Source: Candidatus Woesebacteria bacterium (GTDB taxonomy: Bacteria > Patescibacteriota > Microgenomatia > UBA1400 > UBA1396). From it: a stretch of DNA of 64,000 nucleotides. Positions 688-48,882 of this stretch are shown here, piece after piece. Positions within the stretch are counted from its first letter, which is position 1. Each line of letters opens with the position of its first letter. The notes below the pieces were generated by a model. The model made no database searches and was not told the origin of the DNA. It saw nothing but the letters and a program-made list of their open reading frames with translations. The DNA lies in contig CAVVNJ010000008.1 of assembly GCA_963749595.1 (NCBI GenBank), positions 3,389 to 67,388 of the forward strand, in the 5' to 3' direction. Position numbers and translations under genes: made by a program.

Positions 688-824
688 TGCTTTCGATACT
701 AGATTACTCTAGTCTAATCACATCCCGCAGTAGAGCCTTTCTGCATTTCAGCCCCACAAAATAGTGGCGCAATTATATAGTCAGTTTACCGAATTTGTCA
801 AACTTTCGGTGTTATTATTGTTCT

Positions 825-1334
825 ATGAAAGCCCTCTTTCTGGATCGAGATGGAACATTGGTTAAGGATTATCCGGACGATTCCTGGAGGACAATCAACC
901 GTCTTGAAATTTTTACTGATACTATTCCTGCCTTATTACGGCTTCAGGAGAAGTTCTCTCTGTTCATTATCACCAATCAATATTTGATTCAGGAGGGAAT
1001 AATTTCCGAGGAACGATTTCGTTTGACTCACCGAGAGTTCCTTCGGGAGTTAGCCGCTGCCGGCGTCAAGATCGAGCAAACCTATTATTGTCCGCACCCT
1101 CGATCGATCAATTGTGGTTGTCGCAAACCGGATCGGGGGATGATTGACCAGTGTTTGTTAAATTACGATATTGATTTGGAAAATTCGTATCTGGTTGGTG
1201 ATTCCCCCGTCGATATTAAGTTGGGAAAATCGGTCGGTTGCCACACGGTGGCCGTTGGCGATTATCTCGGTCGGGAACAACCGATTTATCGGGCAGAAAA
1301 TATGCGAATAGCCACTGACTTAATTTTGGGGTGA
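825..1334 (+). CDS. gmhB: HAD-IIIA phosphatase, D,D-heptose 1,7-bisphosphate phosphatase-like
   Basis: Contains DRDGT (HAD motif I), ITNQ, and the zinc-loop pattern CPH-x6-CGCRKP. ATG at 825 is preferred to the TTG at 795 used by the ORF track. Confidence 0.75.
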   Translation: MKALFLDRDGTLVKDYPDDSWRTINRLEIFTDTIPALLRLQEKFSLFIITNQYLIQEGIISEERFRLTHREFLRELAAAGVKIEQTYYCPHPRSINCGCRKPDRGMIDQCLLNYDIDLENSYLVGDSPVDIKLGKSVGCHTVAVGDYLGREQPIYRAENMRIATDLILG

Positions 1335-2868: not shown

Positions 2869-3989
2869 CAGGCCTCCAGCATTTGGTCGATAATTTGACA
2901 AAATTTTTCCAAGGAAAACTCTTCCGCTTTGGCCCGAGCCGCGCGCCCAATTTTATGGCGAAGTTTCGCGCCCCCGTGCCAGATGGTATCGGTTATTTTT
3001 TGCAAATCGTCAATCGTCTCAAAACGGTAGCCAGTAATTCCGGCTGTCACGCTTTCCTTCAGACCGCCCTTATTTACCACCACCGGCACGCAACCATGGG
3101 CCATGGCTTCAATGGTGCTCATGCCGAAATGTTCGACGCGTTGCGGTTCGCGCTCTTCATCAACCCCAAAACCGGCCGCATGCCAGAATACCGCGCTTTC
3201 ATCATAGAGGCGGTGAAGTTGGTCGTAGGAAATGTCATGACGGAACGTGACCGGATATCCTTTGGCCCGTTGCTTGAGTTTGCGAACAAAATCCGCATGG
3301 ATACCTTCTGGCTCGATCCCGCCAACCAGAAGCAGGTTCACTTTTCGCTTGTCCCAGCCGTATTTTTCATAACCCGTCAAAAAAGCTTCCAGCAACACAT
3401 CCTGACGTTTAGCATGGACGTCGGTATGTTGCGGATCGAAAAATCGGCCCACGGCGATGATTTGATTTTTCTTTTTATCCAGATCGGGCATTGGTAATCG
3501 ATTAGTGTCAACGAAGGGATAATGAACGAATGGGATTTTAATCTGCCAGGCTTGCTCAACGACTTGACGCGTAAATTCGGAATTGGCGTTCCGAACTTTC
3601 CAGGAGGCCAATTTCTGACGCGCAAACCAACCGGCGTGATGGTTAGTAAAAGGGATCTGGATATGCAGTATGCTTTTTGGTGCGCCGCACCAAAACAGAC
3701 TGCCGTCGGTGGCGTACCAAAAGGCGTCGTACCGTTTGGTTTCTTGCCAGCGAGTGATCGGATTACCGCGACCCGAAGCGAGCGGCGACCGCCGCCACTG
3801 GATTCGCGACAGATCGAGGTTAAATAAACGTTCATAGTCCCTGATCCGATCAGTTAAATTGGCCGTGTTGTCAGGAATTAAAACCGATACTTCATGCCGC
3901 TGCGACAAATACCAGGCCGTGGTAAGGAAATGTTTTTCGCCGCCGCCGGCATGTTTTGGCAAGTAGGGCGAATAGAAGCCGATTTTCAT
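2868..3989 (-). CDS. glycosyltransferase, GT-B fold (GT4-like)
   Basis: C-terminal EHFGMSTIEAMAHGCVPVV (E-x7-E region). ATG at 3989 overlaps the upstream stop as ATGA. Confidence 0.8.
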   Translation of the reverse strand: MKIGFYSPYLPKHAGGGEKHFLTTAWYLSQRHEVSVLIPDNTANLTDRIRDYERLFNLDLSRIQWRRSPLASGRGNPITRWQETKRYDAFWYATDGSLFWCGAPKSILHIQIPFTNHHAGWFARQKLASWKVRNANSEFTRQVVEQAWQIKIPFVHYPFVDTNRLPMPDLDKKKNQIIAVGRFFDPQHTDVHAKRQDVLLEAFLTGYEKYGWDKRKVNLLLVGGIEPEGIHADFVRKLKQRAKGYPVTFRHDISYDQLHRLYDESAVFWHAAGFGVDEEREPQRVEHFGMSTIEAMAHGCVPVVVNKGGLKESVTAGITGYRFETIDDLQKITDTIWHGGAKLRHKIGRAARAKAEEFSLEKFCQIIDQMLEA

Positions 3990-8109: not shown

Positions 8110-9781
8110 GCTTCCTTCCGTTATTTAGCAGTAGAGCGGCAAAAATAACCCATCCGAAAAAGCTAACCGCCAAAGTGATCGATCTTAAAGGTGTTGGAGA
8201 GAATCTGGCCCCGATCGATTTAATTGGCTCGGTCGCCAAATATTGTCGGCGGCCATCTGGTAGTAAAGTAGGGTGGACTTCGCGATCGTCAACGTAGTAC
8301 TGCCAGCCGGCAAAGTCGGCAATGTTCCAAGTAATGGTTGTAGGAGAGGTAGTTTCCGCAATCAGGAGCAATTCTTGGGCTCGATTTAATTCCCAACTAC
8401 TGGCTTCAGGTGCCGGTTCAATGACAATGCGCTGATCAGGATCGACGGGGGGCAATTTACGGTCAAAACTATTAGGCAAATAATCCATCAGAATGTCGCT
8501 CATTTGCGTTCGGATTAACTGACCATCGGTGTAGTAAAAGTCCTGATCCCGGCTTAAGAATTTTTCAGGTTGGTGATATTTAATCTGTCCGACCAAAATT
8601 GAAATCAAGATGATTAGGGTTAGTGCGTAACGTTGTTGATGGTTTTTCACCAGGGTCACTCCTAGTCCGGCCGCGGCGGAGAGTAATACGATGGCCAAAC
8701 CCAACCAGCGCCAGGGAAATTGAATAAATGGCAGCAGTGGAATAATCTCCCACAAAGGTTGGGAGTGAGTCAGGGTCAAAAACAACGATCCAACTCCTGC
8801 CACGAGCAGTAATCCAATGGCCAGATCTTTTTCCGAGACTTTTTTCCGGCGGAGGTTGCGGTTGCGCCAAATCCAAACCATGGTGGTGAGAATCAACAAG
8901 ATCAGAAGCGGCCAGCCAAGGTGAAAACTAATGCCATCGTTTGGACCATATTCCGAACCACCGTAACCCCACCGCGGCCAGATTAACTGACGGATGTATA
9001 AAAAGTGCAGATGATAATCGAAGTAGCCGGAGAGAATTTCCCCGACAATCGTTCCGTTTTTTTCCAAAAAGGCTGGGATAGCATAGAACGCGCTGAGGGC
9101 CAAACCGAATAGACCCGCGGCGGTTAGTTGTGCCAGCCGGTACCCGCGCTGTTCCCGTTGCCAGAGAATTCTGAGAGCGGCAATCAGGTAGAGAACCGGT
9201 AAAGCCATCAACGCGGTTAAGTTGTGAGTTAACACGAGGAGTGCGGTCCAGAAAGCCGACTGGAGGAACCCGGAGCGGGGCTGGTCCGAGATTTTCCAGA
9301 GAGAATATAGAATCCAGGGCAAAAGGCCAATCGCCAAGGCTTCATTTAGGGCGCCGCGCACAAAGAGATCCACCGCACGGTATGGGGCAGCTAATACCAG
9401 CGCGGCGCCCACAATGGCGGCCGTCCGGCCCCAACGACGCAACAACACGAACATTCCGGTAGCGGCCAGTACGCCAGATAAGGCAAACATTGATTTGACC
9501 GCCCACAGTGGCGACCAACCAAAATAAGTCAGCGCCGCCCCGAAGTAGGACGGTAAAGGACCGTAGAAAAGAAAGAGTGGCATGCCATAGCCATAGCCAA
9601 AATTTTGCGACCAGTGTACTGGAAACTCACCAGCATCCAGAGTGTGGCGCAGCTCGACTAGTCTAGCCACGTGCGTGAAATCATGAACGCGGAAAAAATG
9701 AGGCTGAAAAAAAGCCCAGCTAAAAGCTACCAACAGTGCGAGCAGAATTAAGTGGGCGGCGAGAGTGCGAATTAATCTCAT
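8102..9781 (-). CDS. polytopic membrane protein, GT-C/YfhO-like ('PTPS-related' membrane domain type)
   Basis: 559 aa with many TM segments. The N-terminal HDFTHVARL...FPVHWSQNFGYGYGMPLFLFYGPL pattern is recalled from this family. The assignment is tentative. Confidence 0.5.
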   Translation of the reverse strand: MRLIRTLAAHLILLALLVAFSWAFFQPHFFRVHDFTHVARLVELRHTLDAGEFPVHWSQNFGYGYGMPLFLFYGPLPSYFGAALTYFGWSPLWAVKSMFALSGVLAATGMFVLLRRWGRTAAIVGAALVLAAPYRAVDLFVRGALNEALAIGLLPWILYSLWKISDQPRSGFLQSAFWTALLVLTHNLTALMALPVLYLIAALRILWQREQRGYRLAQLTAAGLFGLALSAFYAIPAFLEKNGTIVGEILSGYFDYHLHFLYIRQLIWPRWGYGGSEYGPNDGISFHLGWPLLILLILTTMVWIWRNRNLRRKKVSEKDLAIGLLLVAGVGSLFLTLTHSQPLWEIIPLLPFIQFPWRWLGLAIVLLSAAAGLGVTLVKNHQQRYALTLIILISILVGQIKYHQPEKFLSRDQDFYYTDGQLIRTQMSDILMDYLPNSFDRKLPPVDPDQRIVIEPAPEASSWELNRAQELLLIAETTSPTTITWNIADFAGWQYYVDDREVHPTLLPDGRRQYLATEPIKSIGARFSPTPLRSITLAVSFFGWVIFAALLLNNGRKHD

Positions 9782-11331
9782 AAAATTGGTTTTACTCGGT
9801 ATACTCTTAATTCGGGAGCGCCATAGGGCCGTTCGTATCGGGCCAGAAGTTCAACTTCGTCAGTGGGTACCTCCATTCGGTCTTGATTCACCACCAACCA
9901 GGTTTCATGCTGCTTGGCTTCCTCCTTAACCCAGGTTGGTAAGAACTTGACCGGGTATTGGTCTAAACCCTCAATACGGAGGTATTTTATTTCCGGAGCG
10001 CGGTCAAAATACATCAATAAACCATCGGGCAGAGTGCCAAATGATCCTTCAGTAACCACTGTTGTCCGTTCGCCACGTCGCGCTCGTTCGAGGAGGGCGT
10101 GCCTGACCTCTGGCAGACCATGGCCGGATGCCCAGGTGGTGAGGTATTGCTCTCGATCTTCCAAAACAAACGGTATTTGACTGGGAGAAAAGATGTTCAG
10201 CAGGGCAAAACGGAGGCTGCCAACGGTAAAGAAAGCAACCAATACCATGAAAACGGTTTGGAAAATTGAATCTTTAGCGCGTTGCACCATCTCCCAGGCT
10301 TCTTCGGTGAAAAGACCAGCGCTGAGCGTTAAGAAAGGGGCCATTGGCAGAAAGTAGCGGGGATGAAGCGTACGTCCATAAAGCACAAGCGGGGCAGCGA
10401 AAATAACCGCTCCAAGCCACCAGAACCAGTGACGTTTGTGATGGTGGGAGACGACCAGAGCTATGACGCTGAGGGACAATAATTCGGGCCGCAAGTATGC
10501 GCTTAACCAACGGACTAAACGGGAAATATTATCGACCGAAACCTGCCAACTGCCGGATAGGAGTTCGCTCGTGGTGAAGGTAAAGTCACCGGAGCGAGAA
10601 AATAATGAGCCGAAAGTCGGTTGTGAGCGGAGCAGGCCGAAAATTACCAAGCCCAATAAACCCGCTGCAGCGAACCAAGCAACTCTTTTTAGCCAGGCGA
10701 GAATTGTCAGAGACGAGATTGGTTTTTGGTCCAGCATAATTGGCCCGCCAAAAGCAAAAAGAACAAAAATGGGCGCAAAAAATAGGGCCGGCGTTTTCGT
10801 CCAGAGAGCCAATCCCCAGCCTATTCCAGTCAGAATTAAGCCGCCAATTCCTGGTCGAAAATGAAGCTTGGTCAGTCCAACGAGCGAGAGGGTTAAGCCT
10901 AAGGTTAATAGCCCGTCCACCAGGGCCATGCGGTGATGAAAAAACCAAAATGGGGCGATGATAATAGTTAGCGCCGCTGCCAGACGCGCGAGCGGTCCGC
11001 CTCGGAATTGGCGAATCAGCCAGTCGGAGAGAAATAGTTGTCCCAGGCCAATTAGGGCGCTAACCGCTCGCGCGGCCCAAAGTGGATCACTGATTACCGA
11101 CAATGCTGGGAGAAGGCTCCAGATGAAAAGCGGCGGTTTGCCGTCATTGAGTGAAAAAAAGGCGTAGCGAGAGGGTTCATGCACGATTAGTTGCGCCCAG
11201 CGGATGTAGATGGCTTCGTCGGCGAAAACTGGCAGACTGGTTAAGCCGGAAAAACGGGAAGCAAGATACGCTCCCACCAGCAGCCAACCGACAATCGTCG
11301 GCTTGGACCAGAATCGCGGTTGAAAGAGCAT
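9778..11331 (-). CDS. GT-C membrane glycosyltransferase (ArnT/PMT_2-like)
   Basis: 517 aa polytopic protein. First extracytoplasmic loop carries ADEAIYIRWAQ. Confidence 0.65.
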   Translation of the reverse strand: MLFQPRFWSKPTIVGWLLVGAYLASRFSGLTSLPVFADEAIYIRWAQLIVHEPSRYAFFSLNDGKPPLFIWSLLPALSVISDPLWAARAVSALIGLGQLFLSDWLIRQFRGGPLARLAAALTIIIAPFWFFHHRMALVDGLLTLGLTLSLVGLTKLHFRPGIGGLILTGIGWGLALWTKTPALFFAPIFVLFAFGGPIMLDQKPISSLTILAWLKRVAWFAAAGLLGLVIFGLLRSQPTFGSLFSRSGDFTFTTSELLSGSWQVSVDNISRLVRWLSAYLRPELLSLSVIALVVSHHHKRHWFWWLGAVIFAAPLVLYGRTLHPRYFLPMAPFLTLSAGLFTEEAWEMVQRAKDSIFQTVFMVLVAFFTVGSLRFALLNIFSPSQIPFVLEDREQYLTTWASGHGLPEVRHALLERARRGERTTVVTEGSFGTLPDGLLMYFDRAPEIKYLRIEGLDQYPVKFLPTWVKEEAKQHETWLVVNQDRMEVPTDEVELLARYERPYGAPELRVYRVKPIL

Positions 11332-33747: not shown

Positions 33748-33919
33748 GGCCAAATCATTGTACACTGCGGTATAATACTTTGAGAACATTAGTACCATGC
33801 GCAAACAACTCGGTATGTTATTACTAGCTAAACTTCCACCGGATTCCCAACGGGAACAAACCGGCACTTGGTTGTACCGCTAAGCTGATTTTGTTTGTGG
33901 CATGGTGAAAAGGAGAACC

Positions 33920-35578
33920 ATGTCTATTTTTAAATCTTTCTCGCAAGTTTTACGAGTTAAAGAAGGTGTCCGGCCGGCCAAACCTCAGGCGATTGTTGCC
34001 GGTCAGTCTGCTGTTCAGTCTAAAGATCCGGTTGCGGCGCCGCCGGCGCGGGGTTCCTACCTTCGCCGAGACAAGCGTCCCCAGCCCAAAGCTCAGTCCA
34101 TTCCGGCTGCTGGCGTTCCCGCTCCGGCGGCGCCGAACGTTTCACCTCAGTTAACCAACCAATTGGCGGAAGTGGAAGAAAAACTCCGGTCGGCCGAATC
34201 CCGGGCGCGGGAAGTGCTGATCGAAGCCAAGTCCGAGGCGCTGAAAATTCGGGAAAAGGCCGAGCAGGACTCACGGACTTTACAAACGGCTTTAGTGGAA
34301 CAGCAAAAGACGCTGGATCGCCAACTGTCCAACCTCAATCTTCGCTTGGAGCAGATCGATCGCCGGGAAGAGTCGGCGGATACCAAGTTGGCTCAATTGG
34401 ATCGCCAGCGTCAGGAGTTGGAACAGAAGCAAGTGGAATTGATCCGTGAGCTGGAATCGGTCAGCGGTTTGACCCGCGATCAGGCGCGGCAAGAAATTCT
34501 TGACCGTTTAGAGCGCTCGGTTGACCGCCAGGCAGCCCAGATGATCCAACAAAAATTGTCGGTGGCTCAGGAAGAAGCGGACGATAAGGCCAAGGAATTG
34601 TTGGTGGAGGCCATGAAGCACGGCGCTACCGACTACGTTGCCGAGTACACTATTTCGGCGGTCAAGTTAGCCGATCCGGAAATGAAGGGCCGGATTATCG
34701 GCAAAGATGGCCGCAACATTCGGGCCTTTGAACGCGCTACCGGTGTGGATGTCGACTTGGACGAAACCCCGGACGAAGTGCGAATTTCATCTTTTGATCC
34801 CGTCCGCCGCGAGATTGCCCGCATTACCTTGGAACGCCTGCTCAAGGACGGTCGGATTCAGCCGGCTCGTATCGAAGAGGTGGTACAAAAGGTTACCAGC
34901 GAACTCAACAAAATCATGTTCGAAGAGGGTAAAAAACTCTGCCACCAGGTGGGGGTCTTCAATTTGCCCCACGACATCATTCAATTGTTGGGTCGGTTCA
35001 AATACCGCTTCTCTTACGGCCAAAACCTGATTCAGCACACCCTGGAAGAAACCCAGATCGGCATCAAGATCGCCAACGAACTCGGTTTGGATGCCCGGGT
35101 GGTGACCTTGGGCTGTTTGCTGCATGACATCGGCAAAATTGTCGAAGGTGAAGGCAATCATATCGAGCTTGGTGTTCAGTTGTTGAAAAAGTATAACTTT
35201 GAGCAACGGGTGATCGATTGTGTGGCTCAACACCACGAAGACGAACCGTTCACGTCACTAGAATCATACGTGGTTTATATTTCCGACGCGATTTCCGGTT
35301 CCCGTCCAGGCGCCCGGAGCGAAAACCATGAGGAATACGTCAAACGCTTGAACAAACTGGAAGAGATAGCCAACTCCTATGAAGGGGTGCAGAAATCCTA
35401 CGCGATTCAAGCTGGTCGGGAGGTTCGCGTACTTCTGATTCCGGAAAAAACTTCCGATCGAGACGCCACGGTGCTGGCCCAAAAGATCGCCGAACGCTAC
35501 GAACAAGAAGTGACCTACCCCGGAACGGTGACGGTTTCGGTGATCCGCGAAGTGCGCGGCGCCGCCACGGCAAAGTAA
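33920..35578 (+). CDS. rny: ribonuclease Y
   Basis: KH domain GRIIGKDGRNIRAFE and HD domain LLHDIGK...HH. ATG at 33920 is preceded by AAGGAG. Confidence 0.9.
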   Translation: MSIFKSFSQVLRVKEGVRPAKPQAIVAGQSAVQSKDPVAAPPARGSYLRRDKRPQPKAQSIPAAGVPAPAAPNVSPQLTNQLAEVEEKLRSAESRAREVLIEAKSEALKIREKAEQDSRTLQTALVEQQKTLDRQLSNLNLRLEQIDRREESADTKLAQLDRQRQELEQKQVELIRELESVSGLTRDQARQEILDRLERSVDRQAAQMIQQKLSVAQEEADDKAKELLVEAMKHGATDYVAEYTISAVKLADPEMKGRIIGKDGRNIRAFERATGVDVDLDETPDEVRISSFDPVRREIARITLERLLKDGRIQPARIEEVVQKVTSELNKIMFEEGKKLCHQVGVFNLPHDIIQLLGRFKYRFSYGQNLIQHTLEETQIGIKIANELGLDARVVTLGCLLHDIGKIVEGEGNHIELGVQLLKKYNFEQRVIDCVAQHHEDEPFTSLESYVVYISDAISGSRPGARSENHEEYVKRLNKLEEIANSYEGVQKSYAIQAGREVRVLLIPEKTSDRDATVLAQKIAERYEQEVTYPGTVTVSVIREVRGAATAK

Positions 35579-35625
35579 GACTAGAAAAAAGGCGGAAGAT
35601 GCGTACAATAGGGGTCTCTGCCTAG

Positions 35626-35677
35626 GTAAAAAACGTAAGGGGATTTTTCCCAAAGGGAAGAATCCCCGCTACTATAG
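35626..35677 (+). promoter_or_regulatory. conserved 52-nt hairpin element, copy 1 (upstream of hup)
   Basis: GTAAAAAACGTAAGGGGATTTTTCCCAAAGGGAAGAATCCCCGCTACTATAG forms a 13-bp hairpin with an AAA loop. It is downstream of a TACAAT box (35604-35609). A homologous copy lies at 39469-39520. Confidence 0.6.
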
Positions 35678-35690
35678 AAGGAGAATTGCT

Positions 35691-35966
35691 ATGACGAAGT
35701 CACAGCTCATCGCGGTTATCGCAAAAAAGGCCAACCTCACTCAGAAGGCAGCCACCGAAGCGGTGGAGACTTTTCTTGAGGAGACCACTCGCGCCCTGGC
35801 TAAAGGCGACAAGGTTCTTTGGTCCGGTTTCGGTACCTTTGACGTTCGCAAAGTCGCTGACAAGCGCGTTGTGCCTTTTGGCAAGACCGAGCTGACTCGC
35901 GTCATCAAGAGCCACCGCGTCGTCAACTTCAAGGCCGGTAAGCCAATGAAGGAAGCGATCAAGTAA
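35691..35966 (+). CDS. hup: DNA-binding protein HU
   Basis: MTKSQLIAVIAKKANLTQKAA...GFGTFDVRKVADKRV...NFKAGK is the typical HU/IHF fold sequence. AAGGAG RBS present. Confidence 0.9.
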   Translation: MTKSQLIAVIAKKANLTQKAATEAVETFLEETTRALAKGDKVLWSGFGTFDVRKVADKRVVPFGKTELTRVIKSHRVVNFKAGKPMKEAIK

Positions 35967-35973
35967 GGTAGTA

Positions 35974-36017
35974 AGGTCAGACCTTCCAGAGGAAACTTTG
36001 GCTAAGGTCAGACCCTG
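35974..36017. repeat. twin palindrome, locus b
   Basis: AAGGTCAGACCTTCC and AAGGTCAGACCCT with centres 31 bp apart, immediately after the hup stop. Confidence 0.75.
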
Positions 36018-36031
36018 ATCTGAAAATAAGG

Positions 36032-36055
36032 CGCCGGGGCAACCCGGCGCTTTTG
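36032..36055 (+). terminator. intrinsic terminator of hup
   Basis: GCGCCGGG-GCAA-CCCGGCGC hairpin followed by TTTT. Confidence 0.8.
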
Positions 36056-37759: not shown

Positions 37760-37804
37760 TTGAACAAATATATCACAAGTTGCGTCAATTCCTTTTCTGG
37801 AGAG

Positions 37805-37878
37805 TGTCAGAGGTGGGAGTTGGACCCACGACCTGCGGTTTATGAATCCGCCGCTCTAACCAACTGAGCTACTCTGAC
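37805..37878 (-). tRNA. tRNA-Met or tRNA-Ile2 (anticodon CAT), elongator type
   Basis: Minus-strand cloverleaf: GTCAGAG acceptor, GCTC-AGTTGGTTA-GAGC D arm, anticodon loop TTCATAA, T arm GTGGG-TCCAACT-CCCAC. The T loop has C where U55 is expected, and A31/A39 is a mismatch. Confidence 0.8.
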
Positions 37879-39112: not shown

Positions 39113-39186
39113 AGAGTGCTATAATACCCGCCAGAAACAACTTTACCGCTCGGCACAAAGCTGGACGGCTAAGGGAGGATACAACT

Positions 39187-39456
39187 ATGGCTCTCGATCC
39201 ACAGATCAAAGCCCAAATCATTAAAGATTTCTCGCAAGGCGAAGGCGACACCGGTTCCCCGGAGGTCCAGGTTGCCCTGTTAACTAACCAAATCACCTCG
39301 TTGACCGGTCACTTGAAGACTCACAAAAAGGATAACCACTCCCGCCGCGGTTTGCTCAAGATGGTGGCCAAGCGCCGCCGCTTGTTGAACTTCCTGCTCC
39401 GTAAAGACGAAGCTCGCTATAAGAAGCTGATTGAGCGTCTGGGCCTGAACAAGTAA
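39187..39456 (+). CDS. rpsO: 30S ribosomal protein S15
   Basis: [52 protein letters not shown] promoter lies at 39115-39123. Confidence 0.95.
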
Positions 39457-39468
39457 CCCTGCTACAAT

Positions 39469-39520
39469 GTAAAAAGCGTAAGAGGATTTTCCCCAGAGGG
39501 GATAATCCTCGCTACAAAAG
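39469..39520 (+). promoter_or_regulatory. conserved 52-nt hairpin element, copy 2 (rpsO-pnp intergenic)
   Basis: GTAAAAAGCGTAAGAGGATTTTCCCCAGAGGGGATAATCCTCGCTACAAAAG. It starts immediately after TGCTACAAT (-10 at 39463-39468). Two base pairs covary relative to copy 1. Confidence 0.6.
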
Positions 39521-39638
39521 TATGGGGAAAAACCCCAAAAATATGAAAGGAAGGGCAACGGAGTCCCCGAGTTTTCACAGCTGCTCTCGCTAACGTGGGC
39601 AAGTGCGAGAACTTGCGTTCCGTTCCCTTAAAACAGAT

Positions 39639-41895
39639 ATGTCTAATATCTATACCCGAACCGTAATGGTGGGCGACAAGTCCATCAAGCTGGAGGTCGG
39701 GAGATTTTCCGAACAAGCCGAAGCGGCGGTTCTGGCAACTTGCGGCGGCACGGTCGTGCACGCCACTATCGGGTTGGGTGGTGAGTCCAGCCTGGATTAC
39801 TTCCCGTTGTCGGTCGACTACGCGGAAAAACTTTATGCTGGTGGCCGGATCAAGGGCAGCCGTTGGGTTAAGCGTGAAGGCCGTCCCACTGATGGGGCGA
39901 TTTTGGCCGGACGCGTGATTGACCGTTCCATCCGTCCCTTATTTGCGGAAGGCCTGAAGCGCGAAGTCCAGGTCATCACCACTATTCTTTCGGTTGATCA
40001 CCAAAATAATCCGGATATGTTGGCCCTTTTGGCTACCGCAGCGGCCATCGAGATTTCCTCGATTCCTTTTGACGGTCCGTTGGCCGGACTGCGTGTTGGT
40101 TACTTCGCGGACGAAGACCGCTTTGTTTTTAACCCCACCTTTGAAGAGCAGGATAAGTCTCAACTCGACCTAATCCTGGCCGGTACTAAAGACGCCGTCG
40201 TGATGGTTGAAGCCGGCGCGAACGAAGTGACCGAAGCCGTGATGCTCCGGGCATTTGCGGAAGGTCATCAAGTAATTGCTCAGCTGGCTGATGAAATCGT
40301 CCAAATGCGCAACGAGATCGGCAAGCCCAAATTCGAGTTTAATCCTCCGCAATTTGATCAAACCCTGATGGAAACTCTGGCTTCCCGCTTTGCTGCGGAA
40401 ATCAAGGAAGCCGTTCATTTGCGCGCCACCTTGGCCAAAGACGACGGACTCAAGGCGATCATTGCGACTTTGATCGCTGAAGACGAAACGCTCCGTTTGC
40501 AACCGTTGGGCGAAATGCTCAACAAACTGGTCAAAAAGGAAGCCCGCCGCGGCACCCTGGAAGAGGGAATCCGTCCCGACGGCCGCAAGACCGACGAAAT
40601 CCGGGAAATCACCTGCGAAATTGACGTTTTGCCGATGACTCACGGTTCAGCCGTGTTCAAGCGCGGTTCAACTCAAGTTTTGAGCGTTACCACGTTGGCG
40701 TCCCCGGCTTTGGCCCAGTTGATTGAGGACATGGAAGGCGAACACGAACGCCGCTATATCCACCACTACAACATGCCGCCTTACGCCTCTGGTGAAGCTG
40801 GTCGGTTCGGCGCTCCTAAGCGTCGTGAAATTGGCCACGGTGCTTTGGCTGAGCGCGCTTTGCTCCCGGTTATTCCGGAGCAGGAGAAGTTCCCCTATAC
40901 CATTCAGGTGGTTTCGGAGGTCATGAGCTCTAATGGTTCGACTTCCCAGGGTTCGGTTTGTGGCAGCACCTTGGCCTTGATGGCCGCTGGTGTTCCGATT
41001 CGTAAGCCGGTGTCAGGTATCGCCATGGGATTGCTTAAACAGGGTGATCAGCACGTGGTCCTGTCCGACATTCAGGGTTTGGAAGATTTTACCGGCGACA
41101 TGGATTTCAAGGTGGCCGGTACTAAAGATGGTATTACCGCCATGCAGATGGATATCAAGATTAAGGGTATTCCGATGGAAGTGATGACCCAGGCGCTAGA
41201 ACAAGCCCGGGTTGGCCGTCTCTTCATTATGGATAAAATGTTGGCCGCCATTGCCGAGCCTCGTCCGGAATTATCGCCCGTACGCCCCCAAGGTGGAAAG
41301 CGTCATGATTCCGGTTAGTCGGATTGGTGAGCTGATTGGTCCTGGTGGCAAAACCATCAAGGCCATCAAGGAACGGACTGGTGCCGATATTGATGTCGAA
41401 GACAGCGGTATGGTCAGTGTCAGTGCAGTCGACATAGCGGCCATTAAGGAAGCGGTCAAGATTATTCAAGACATGATGCTGGAGATCGTGCCCGGCATGG
41501 AGTTTGACGGCCGCGTGGTCCGGATTGAAGATTACGGTGCTTTCGTAGAATTGGTGCCTGGACAAACTGGACTGGCCCACGTTTCGATGATGGCTCCCGG
41601 CTATGTCAAGGACCCGCGTGAAATTGTTAATCTGGACGATATTGTGCACGTTCGCGTTGCCGACGTTGAAGGTGACCGAATCCGTCTGAGCTTCTTAACC
41701 GCCGAACAAGAGGCCGAGGCGGCCGCCAACCGACCCCCGCGCGAACCCCGTGAAGGGGGAGATCGCCGAGGTGGTGGTGGCAGATTCGGTGGTCGGGATG
41801 ATCGCGGCGGTGATCGCGGCGGACGCAGTTTTGGCGGCCGCGGTGGTGATCGAGGCGGCGACCGAGGCGGTGACCGCGGTGGTCGGCGCTTCTAA
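39639..41895 (+). CDS. pnp: polyribonucleotide nucleotidyltransferase (PNPase); frame broken by an apparent 1-nt insertion near 41277-41281; C-terminal RGG-type tail
   Basis: Two RNase PH domains end in ...AIAEPRPELSP in frame 3. The expected continuation YAPKVESVMIPVSRIGELIGPGGKTIK (KH) and the S1 domain read in frame 1. The overlap region is 41212-41318. Confidence 0.85.
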
Positions 41896-43398: not shown

Positions 43399-43446
43399 GG
43401 AAGGTCTGACCTTCACGAAAATCACCTCTGGAAGGTCAGACCTTCC
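43399..43446. repeat. twin palindrome, locus c
   Basis: GGAAGGTCTGACCTTC and GGAAGGTCAGACCTTCC with centres 31 bp apart. Confidence 0.85.
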
Positions 43447-45310: not shown

Positions 45311-45358
45311 GGAGGGTTTGACCCTCCAGGGGTGAGTTCGCGGAGGGTTAGACCCTGG
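45311..45358. repeat. twin palindrome, locus d (variant GGAGGGT..ACCCTCC)
   Basis: GGAGGGTTTGACCCTCC and GGAGGGTTAGACCCTGG with centres 31 bp apart. Both arms changed together relative to loci a-c. Confidence 0.75.
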
Positions 45359-48642: not shown

Positions 48643-48727
48643 GGAGGTGTCGCCTAGTGGCCGATGGCAGCGGGTTGCTAACCCGCGACTCGAAAGGGTC
48701 ACGTGAGTTCGAATCTCACCACCTCCG
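48643..48727 (+). tRNA. tRNA-Ser (anticodon GCT)
   Basis: GGAGGTG acceptor, 3-bp D stem, anticodon arm GCGGG-TTGCTAA-CCCGC, long variable arm, T arm GTGAG-TTCGAAT-CTCAC, discriminator G. A TATAAT box lies at 48623-48628. Confidence 0.9.
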
Positions 48728-48882
48728 CATCAGTTGAAAAGTTCTGATAGACCCGTCTAATACCGCTGAATGGGCTGATGGTGCCGACGAATATTTCCTC
48801 AAGGGCGAACTTCTTGAAACCACAGCCGTGTAAGTATCAAATTCCCCTGGTATAAGACGATCAAACCGCCTCGATAGTGTGG

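Follow-up and report, generated by a model that had tools for sequence, protein, structure and literature searches.

A hairpin of the rpsO-pnp spacer and its second copy in the hup leader of a Patescibacteria genome

Does a hairpin that stands upstream of both hup and pnp place a nucleoid protein and an RNA-decay enzyme under common control, or does it have another history? The question was raised by a 64-kb stretch of DNA (hereafter the window), for which an original prediction had described a 52-nt hairpin element common to the two upstream regions and proposed it as a shared leader structure or operator. Our analysis shows that the hairpin is real and its pairing constrained, and that it is a lineage-specific duplicated intercistronic element, not a conserved co-regulator. 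In kind it is familiar, an un-catalogued example of a known element type.

Within the window, the hup copy follows rny (RNase Y; 33902..35578, + strand; Pfam RNase_Y_N, KH and HD domains) and precedes hup, which encodes an HU-type DNA-binding protein (35691..35966, +; Pfam Bac_DNA_binding, E = 1.3e-21). The other copy lies between rpsO (ribosomal protein S15; 39187..39456, +; Pfam Ribosomal_S15, E = 2.9e-35) and pnp (PNPase; 39639..41895, +). Homologues of the PNPase and RNase Y proteins place the host among Patescibacteria of the Microgenomates type, with Woesebacteria, Cerribacteria and Pacebacteria as named neighbours, and the synteny Lon-rny-hup...rpsO-pnp is maintained in the relatives L002, L003 and L057.

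The pnp of the window is split into two overlapping frames (39603/39639-41318 and 41212-41895), the first with two Pfam RNase_PH domains and the PNPase domain, the second with KH and S1; in relatives PNPase is a single protein of 730-860 aa. Either a frameshift, a pseudogene or an error in sequencing lies behind the split, and the public record holds a 550-aa product (P0001). Two tRNA genes in the window, tRNA-Met (CAT; 37804-37878, -) and tRNA-Ser (GCT; 48643-48728, +), are ordinary.

Two copies of the hairpin in the window

The 52-nt elements at 35626-35677 and 39469-39520 have the sequences claimed for them and align without gaps at 43 of 52 positions, while the runner-up ungapped match to the hup copy on both strands of the window reaches only 28-29 of 52. 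A 22-nt degenerate core pattern matched twice in the window, against 0.00 matches expected from shuffles, and searches with two covariance models, a kind of check that had been proposed for the genome and its relatives, returned exactly two copies in the window, also when one was run with its filters switched off.

The hairpin of copy 1 (35639..35667, +) reads GGGGATTTTTCCC-AAA-GGGAAGAATCCCC and forms 13 pairs including one U.G, with a covariance-model match of 80 bits; that of copy 2 (39482..39510, +) reads GAGGATTTTCCCC-AGA-GGGGATAATCCTC and forms 12 pairs plus one U.U, with a match of 79 bits. The 13-position hairpin proposed for each copy was borne out by predicted folds of -23.7 kcal/mol for the hup copy (z = -6.1) and -20.7 kcal/mol for the rpsO-pnp copy (z = -5.2), and none of 200 shuffles folded equally well. 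The two compensatory differences that had been pointed out, at pair 2 (G-C versus A-T) and pair 10 (T-A versus C-G), are both seen, and both copies do end in CGCTAC(T/A)A(T/A)AG.

The duplicated unit, here called the module, has 43 nt. Copy 1, in the hup 5' leader (35634..35676, +), consists of CGTAAG, the hairpin and CGC-TACTAT-A, and its boundaries are uncertain by 1-4 nt owing to microhomology. Copy 2, in the rpsO-pnp spacer (39477..39519, +), consists of CGTAAG, the hairpin and CGC-TACAAA-A, and L001 and L057 have homologues of it in the corresponding spacer. The copies lie 3.8 kb apart on the same strand and are identical at 35 of 43 positions. The flanks CGTAAG and CGCTAC are more conserved than the stem, which hints at a sequence-specific recognition beyond simple pairing. 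Noise aside, neither copy had a match in Rfam release 15, whether the cut-off was the gathering score or E <= 10.

The copy in the hup leader

The hup leader is otherwise conserved in five of five relatives (L056, L057, L002, L003 and L058), all of which are without the module, and the flanks of the empty sites of L056, L003, L002 and L057 align cleanly with the window. The closest of the five is L056, which comes from one JGI sample with L001 and whose RNase Y is 88-89% identical to that of the window; its rny-hup spacer is almost identical to the window's, minus 43 nt. The empty site of L056 reads ...TACAATAGGGTCTCTGCCTGCGTAAAAA|AGAAGGAGAATTGCTATG, and the filled site of the window reads ...GGTAAAAAA|CGTAAG-hairpin-CGCTACTATA|GAAGGAG. 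The Logan assembly ERR12037366, from an independent run, encodes an identical HU protein and has the same rny-hup spacer of 112 nt, so that an assembly artefact can be dismissed for the hup copy. A precise loss in the relatives, instead of a gain in the window, was rejected as contrary to parsimony, given five empty sites on several branches.

The empty sites show the leader without the module, and GTAAAAAA (35626..35633, +), the left end of the 52-nt element, therefore belongs to the native hup leader. It matches GTAAAAAG beside the rpsO-pnp hairpin, L056 reads GCGTAAAAAAGAAGGAG at the same position, and it is the probable left microhomology of the insertion. The shared left GTAAAAA, which falls within the 52-nt element of the original prediction, is such a native microhomology of the hup leader and no component of a joint operator.

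The hup copy lies 60 nt past the rny stop and downstream of the hup promoter. The native -10 box of this promoter, TACAAT (35604..35609, +; a 9/12 match in the promoter scan), has a -35-like TAGAAA before it (35582-35587, +) and is followed by the conserved leader start AGGGGTCTCTGCC; TACAAT and GGGTCTCTGCC are invariant in five genomes, and in L003, L002, L057 and L058 the ribosome-binding site is conserved along with the promoter and the leader start. The module itself carries a further -10-like hexamer, TACTAT (35670..35675, +), which derives from the pnp promoter, as its alignment with CGCTACAAT of L001 and L057 shows, and which is separated from the hup ATG by 15 nt. As a working hup promoter it was considered unlikely, because a start about 7 nt downstream would delete the conserved ribosome-binding site; judging from this position, it is probably not used.

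Pairing of UCUCU with GGAGA, the latter at the ribosome-binding site, is predicted in the hup leader of all five genomes, and the insertion falls inside the loop. In three of four relatives the energy of the leader is no better than that of shuffles, the exception being L057 (z = -2.5). These predictions point, weakly, to a pre-existing hup-leader stem that may sequester the ribosome-binding site.

The rpsO-pnp site and the conserved pnp leader

At the rpsO-pnp site of L001, whose PNPase is 92% identical to that of the window, the sequence is caaGTAAAATAGCGTCAAG-GGATTTTCCTC-GCC-GAGGAAAATCC-CTGCTACAATGTAGAAAAAGG, and at that of L057 it is caaGTAAAAAGCGTTGAAG-AGAGTTCTCCCC-AAA-GGGGTGAATTCT-CGCTACAATGTAG. 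In both relatives the hairpin starts about 10 nt past the rpsO stop and ends 2-3 nt before TACAAT, with CGCTACAAT coming after the hairpin and the pnp leader following. Comparison of these loci indicates that the older layout is rpsO stop, hairpin and pnp -10 box, and that the hairpin ancestrally lay outside the pnp 5' UTR.

Alignment of the window with L001 and L057 revealed a window-specific insertion of 15-16 nt, CCCTGCTACAATGTAA (39457..39472, +), just past the rpsO stop, so that TG-C-TACAAT (39460-39468), an extended -10 box, precedes the hairpin. The TACAAT boxes that the original prediction had noted upstream of the two copies (35604-35609 and 39463-39468, both +) are thus present, with the qualification that the pnp-side box is part of this insertion and peculiar to the window. 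The insertion is 95% identical to the sequence 3' of the hairpin in L001, which suggests a copy of the pnp promoter that arose by repeated slippage or template switching around the hairpin. The ancestral pnp -10 box, TACAAT in L001 and L057, has decayed to TACAAA in the window (39513..39518, +). A small second hairpin, TGGGG-AAAAA-CCCCA (39523..39537, +), stands between the module and the pnp leader and has counterparts in L003 and L001. We also noted that the inserted sequence sits inside GTAA|AAAG, which spans the rpsO stop, and that a GTAA repeat borders it on either side.

The rpsO-pnp spacers of L002 and L003, two relatives at roughly the same distance as L057, do not contain the hairpin; the spacer of L002 contains other palindromes, and that of L003 only the promoter and the small hairpin. 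Given this absence, the hairpin is dispensable or replaceable, by palindromes as in L002. Altogether, two of four close relatives have it at this site, while about 40 relatives at greater distance all lack it. The covariance model, when run on 47 further Patescibacteria loci (0.5 Mb, pnp loci), matched L057 as its sole hit, and no other copies were detected in about 50 kb of the close relatives' loci. In the distant Patescibacteria L073, L088, L090 and L096, rpsO is followed by classical terminators, each a hairpin with a U tract, and then TATAAT. The element is confined to a narrow, Microgenomates-like clade of Patescibacteria.

Upstream of this site, the rpsO 5' UTR and start codon (39141-39243, +) matched the S15 leader of Rfam (RF00114) below the threshold (29.1 bits versus a gathering score of 39.5, E = 6.5e-4), and this segment may be a divergent S15 autoregulatory leader.

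A second structure, distinct from the duplicated hairpin, was found directly before pnp. This conserved pnp leader (39545..39638, +) comprises a core stem, in which CGAGTTTTCAC (39568-39578) pairs with GTGCGAGAACTTG (39603-39615), and an outer stem, in which GGAAGGGCAACGGA pairs with TCCGTTCCCTT; its conserved segments are GAAAGGAAGGG...CGAGTTTTCAC...GCGAGAACTTG...TCCGTTCCCTT. The leader is conserved in all close and several distant relatives, down to about 66% PNPase identity, and of the 19 pairs in the consensus fold of nine relatives, 8 show compensatory changes. Rfam gave no match to 39545-39638. By analogy with E. coli, this leader is a candidate PNPase/RNase III autoregulatory structure for the phylum.

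In E. coli, the order at this locus is rpsO, the T1 terminator, the P2 promoter, a stem-loop cleaved by RNase III, and pnp (PMC5029454). The order in L001 and L057 is the same, namely stop, hairpin, -10 box, long conserved leader stem and pnp, so that the hairpin holds the slot of T1 and the 39545-39638 leader that of the RNase III stem. The two loci differ in that the hairpin in the T1 slot is here without a U tract and hence no canonical intrinsic terminator, in that there is no sequence similarity, and in that the promoter of the window has moved upstream of the hairpin. If this reading is true, the E. coli arrangement of rpsO, hairpin, pnp promoter and leader stem recurs in Patescibacteria, and the real conserved pnp leader is told apart from a look-alike hairpin. 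The original prediction had compared the 52-nt element with the autoregulatory pnp leader hairpin of E. coli; the counterpart of that hairpin is the 39545-39638 stem. A hairpin of the E. coli type would be a long duplex, some two helical turns in length, that belongs to the 5' UTR of pnp and follows its promoter. The longer stem at 39545-39638 answers to this, and the element, with 13 bp only, lies upstream of the -10 box in L001 and L057.

These findings bear directly on the proposal that the two copies form a shared cis-regulatory leader or operator of hup and pnp, for example in cold-shock or ribonuclease-mediated autoregulation. Both copies in the window do lie between plausible -10 boxes and start codons, their pairing is under selection, their flanks are highly conserved between the copies, and one compensatory double change took place in the hup copy after insertion (see below). 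A shared regulon would nevertheless be expected to keep its element upstream of the same genes, and here only the structure is supported, by covariation: at hup the element shows no conservation in related genomes, an outcome that had been named in advance as speaking against the proposal, and the copy is missing even from the closest relative. On the pnp side the ancestral hairpin stands before the promoter, directly past the rpsO stop, and the leader that is conserved and covarying there is a different structure. The window contains no third copy, and the 0.5 Mb of Patescibacteria pnp loci added only L057. The co-regulatory proposal was therefore not upheld, and we regard it as improbable.

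Constraint, probable role and probable copying route of the hairpin

The original prediction had argued from the compensatory differences for selection on pairing, and the homologues of L001 and L057 strengthen that claim. In the four-sequence alignment that includes them, 6 of the 13 pairs have changed on both sides, and 96.2% of the cells are paired, the remaining non-pairs being U.U. None of 500 shuffles reached either value, and a slid register yielded 0-1 such pairs.

Two wobbles, U.G in the hup copy and G.U in L057, are wobbles only when read as + strand RNA; on the other strand they would be A.C. Because both are G.U on the gene strand, an RNA hairpin is favoured over a protein-binding DNA dyad. 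In the latter case, the element would be a DNA-level operator for a dimeric regulator, centred near -29 of the ancestral pnp promoter, and with the pnp start inferred via the -10 box of L001 and L057, the dyad does cover about -43 to -15, a typical place for a repressor. Against such an operator, and besides the one-sided wobbles, 6 of 13 symmetric positions have changed on both arms, which keeps the pairing and alters the bases that a protein would read, and the hup copy lies downstream of its promoter, adjoining the ribosome-binding site. We consider a DNA operator very improbable.

At third codon positions the window is 50-59% identical to L001/L056. Neutral sites have thus nearly reached saturation, and retention of the stem therefore reflects constraint. 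Compared with this value, the 35/43 identity of the two copies means that the duplication is younger than the split of the window from L001/L056, which agrees with the empty hup site in L056. In copy 2, L001 and L057, C-G forms pair 10, for which the hup copy has U-A. Polarised in this way by L001 and L057, it records at least one compensatory double change after the insertion, in the hup copy, and the pairing of this copy is therefore not simply decaying.

Palindromes are hot-spots for templated double mutations, duplications and deletions. The hairpin could accordingly be a functionless quasi-palindrome, with double changes produced by intra-strand template switching between its arms and with the hup copy as a neutral passenger. 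The three local rearrangements at the locus fit this picture, as does the hup insertion in that it separates UCUCU from GGAGA, whose pairing is weakly predicted and which may tolerate additional sequence between them. The rpsO-pnp hairpin has, on the other hand, persisted across lineages whose synonymous sites are near saturation, its wobbles are strand-asymmetric as expected for RNA, and its position matches that of the terminators of other Patescibacteria. A quasi-palindrome without function accordingly has a low probability in our judgement.

The reading that we prefer, with moderate confidence, is that of an intercistronic RNA stem-loop at rpsO-pnp which was copied once, fairly recently, into the hup leader. 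The module would be a stable RNA stem-loop composed of CGTAAG, a 13-bp hairpin, CGC and a TACAAT-type box, with the rpsO-pnp spacer as its home. From its position, and by analogy, the hairpin would define or protect the 3' end of the rpsO mRNA and block exonucleases; a 3'-end-defining or exonuclease-blocking structure is most likely its role. Weak, non-canonical termination is a further possible role, as is 5'-proximal stabilisation of read-through or downstream transcripts. As a counterpoint, both hairpins of the window are downstream of intact -10 boxes and could be in 5' UTRs.

To our knowledge, almost nothing is known about transcript-end formation in Patescibacteria genomes of this kind. 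The hairpin resembles an intrinsic terminator in its G+C-rich stem-loop (13-bp stems, -20.7 to -23.7 kcal/mol), but there is no U run 0-2 nt after the stem, the + strand continuing with CGCUACUAUAG in one copy and CGCUACAAAAG in the other. Neither copy was listed in a terminator scan of the window. The missing U tract is informative because the genome does use classical U-tract terminators, such as that of hup at 36031-36054, and a canonical intrinsic terminator is unlikely. A terminator on the minus strand was rejected, as its U run would come 6-9 nt past the stem, there is no convergent gene, and the wobbles favour the + strand.

In E. coli, stable stem-loops without U tracts set the steady-state 3' ends of mRNAs and protect them against PNPase and RNase II (PMC6061677). 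Like the stem-loops of E. coli Rho-dependent transcripts (Dar and Sorek 2018), the rpsO-pnp hairpin is stable, lies just past a coding region and has no uridine-rich tract. It differs from them in that its hup copy is inside a 5' UTR.

In the preferred reading, two local rearrangements mark the lineage of the window. In one, a 15-16-nt copy of the pnp promoter moved upstream of the hairpin, and the downstream -10 box decayed to TACAAA; in the other, the hup 5' UTR received a copy of the module from 3.8 kb downstream on the same strand, presumably by microhomology-mediated gene conversion or template switching. The hup module is bounded by the native GTAAAAAA and AGAAGGAG, which resemble the pnp direct repeats GTAAAAAG and GTAGAAAAAGG, and this likeness of the flanks indicates microhomology-mediated copying. 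In the empty hup site the sequence is GTAAAAAAGAAGG; the junctions lie inside GTAAAAA and AGAA microhomologies. From these sequences, transfer to hup appears best explained by local microhomology-mediated copying. If true, this is a clean, datable case of a structured intercistronic RNA copied to a neighbour gene by microhomology, in the reduced genome of an uncultivated member of the Patescibacteria. It falls short of establishing a new regulon or mechanism, and its narrow clade limits its general importance.

Presence/absence polymorphism was found both at the hup site and at the rpsO-pnp site (L002 and L003 versus L001 and L057), as would also be expected of a dispersed family of miniature mobile palindromes, similar to REP, MITE or Correia elements and with GTAAAAAR as their insertion site. 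The empty sites are clean, GTAAAA(A/T)(A/G) precedes the module in four of four instances, and the pnp flanks GTAAAAAG and GTAGAAAAAG are direct repeats that resemble a target-site duplication; the genome also has another small palindromic repeat family (D1), and the spacer of L002 holds other palindromes. The module shares with REP/BIME, Correia and RUP repeats its short palindromic form, its co-transcribed intergenic location and its polymorphism among close relatives. Unlike them, it was detected twice only in the 64 kb, its ends bear no inverted repeats apart from the hairpin itself, its arrival at hup left no target-site duplication, and relatives do not show it as a dispersed family. The two copies were all that a sensitive model could find in the window, with none other in about 50 kb of close and 0.5 Mb of distant relatives, and a flank-plus-stem pattern had 0 matches in 596 Gb of species-representative genomes, a collection without this genome and its near relatives. 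At hup, the empty site of L056 compared with the filled site shows microhomology only, no transposase-related feature was found, and the placement of the copies 3.8 kb apart on the same strand suits local copying. A mobile element is thus unlikely, though it deserves some weight.

More speculatively, the module could be a copy-prone recognition hairpin for RNase Y, RNase III or PNPase, whose spread newly wired HU into rpsO/pnp post-transcriptional control in this lineage, the hairpin being perhaps related to the invariant GGAUUUUCC...GGAAAAUCC arm of the RNA-like element treated below, a so far undescribed structured RNA of about 175-190 nt from unrelated high-GC bacteria. To this idea we give little credence.

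When metagenomes were scanned with a pattern of the stem and a short 3' flank, at least 50 loci were obtained. Among the matches listed, none was associated with rpsO or hup of Patescibacteria; about 33 came from a structured repeat of high GC content that is unrelated to the hairpin, and the others were small families or singletons. A scan of viral contigs gave one match, apparently inside a coding sequence, which was taken as chance.

On high-GC contigs from peat and sediment metagenomes, we observed a multi-copy structured RNA-like element of about 170-190 nt. It is located at 3313-3502 (+) of L006, at 9588-9775 (+) of L017, at about 10177-10495 (+) of L019, where a second copy lies on the - strand near 200-397, and at 822-989 (+) of L040, which has a second tandem copy. 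Its invariant core consists of AAAACCCGUGCGACGAnnGAGCGGGCAcGG, GAGCGAAGGAGGAGCGUCGGAG, GGAUUUUCC..GGAAAAUCC and GCGUUUU, and its closing stem and variable hairpin covary strongly (20/57 pairs). The neighbouring genes are mutually unrelated, and Rfam gave no match. Over 40 nt, loop included, its invariant hairpin with the 5' AGCGUC is about 87% identical to the rpsO-pnp hairpin of L001.

Finally, paired short palindromes, AAGGTCTGACCTT ... AAGGTCAGACC, occur in the window in four copies (21187-21228, 35973-36014, 43401-43442 and 45313-45354), one of which lies between the hup stop and the hup terminator. They look like a REP-like family distinct from the hup/pnp hairpin. Analogous palindromes, GAGGGTGCCACCCTC and AAGGTGTCACCTT, are found in the rpsO-pnp spacer of L002.
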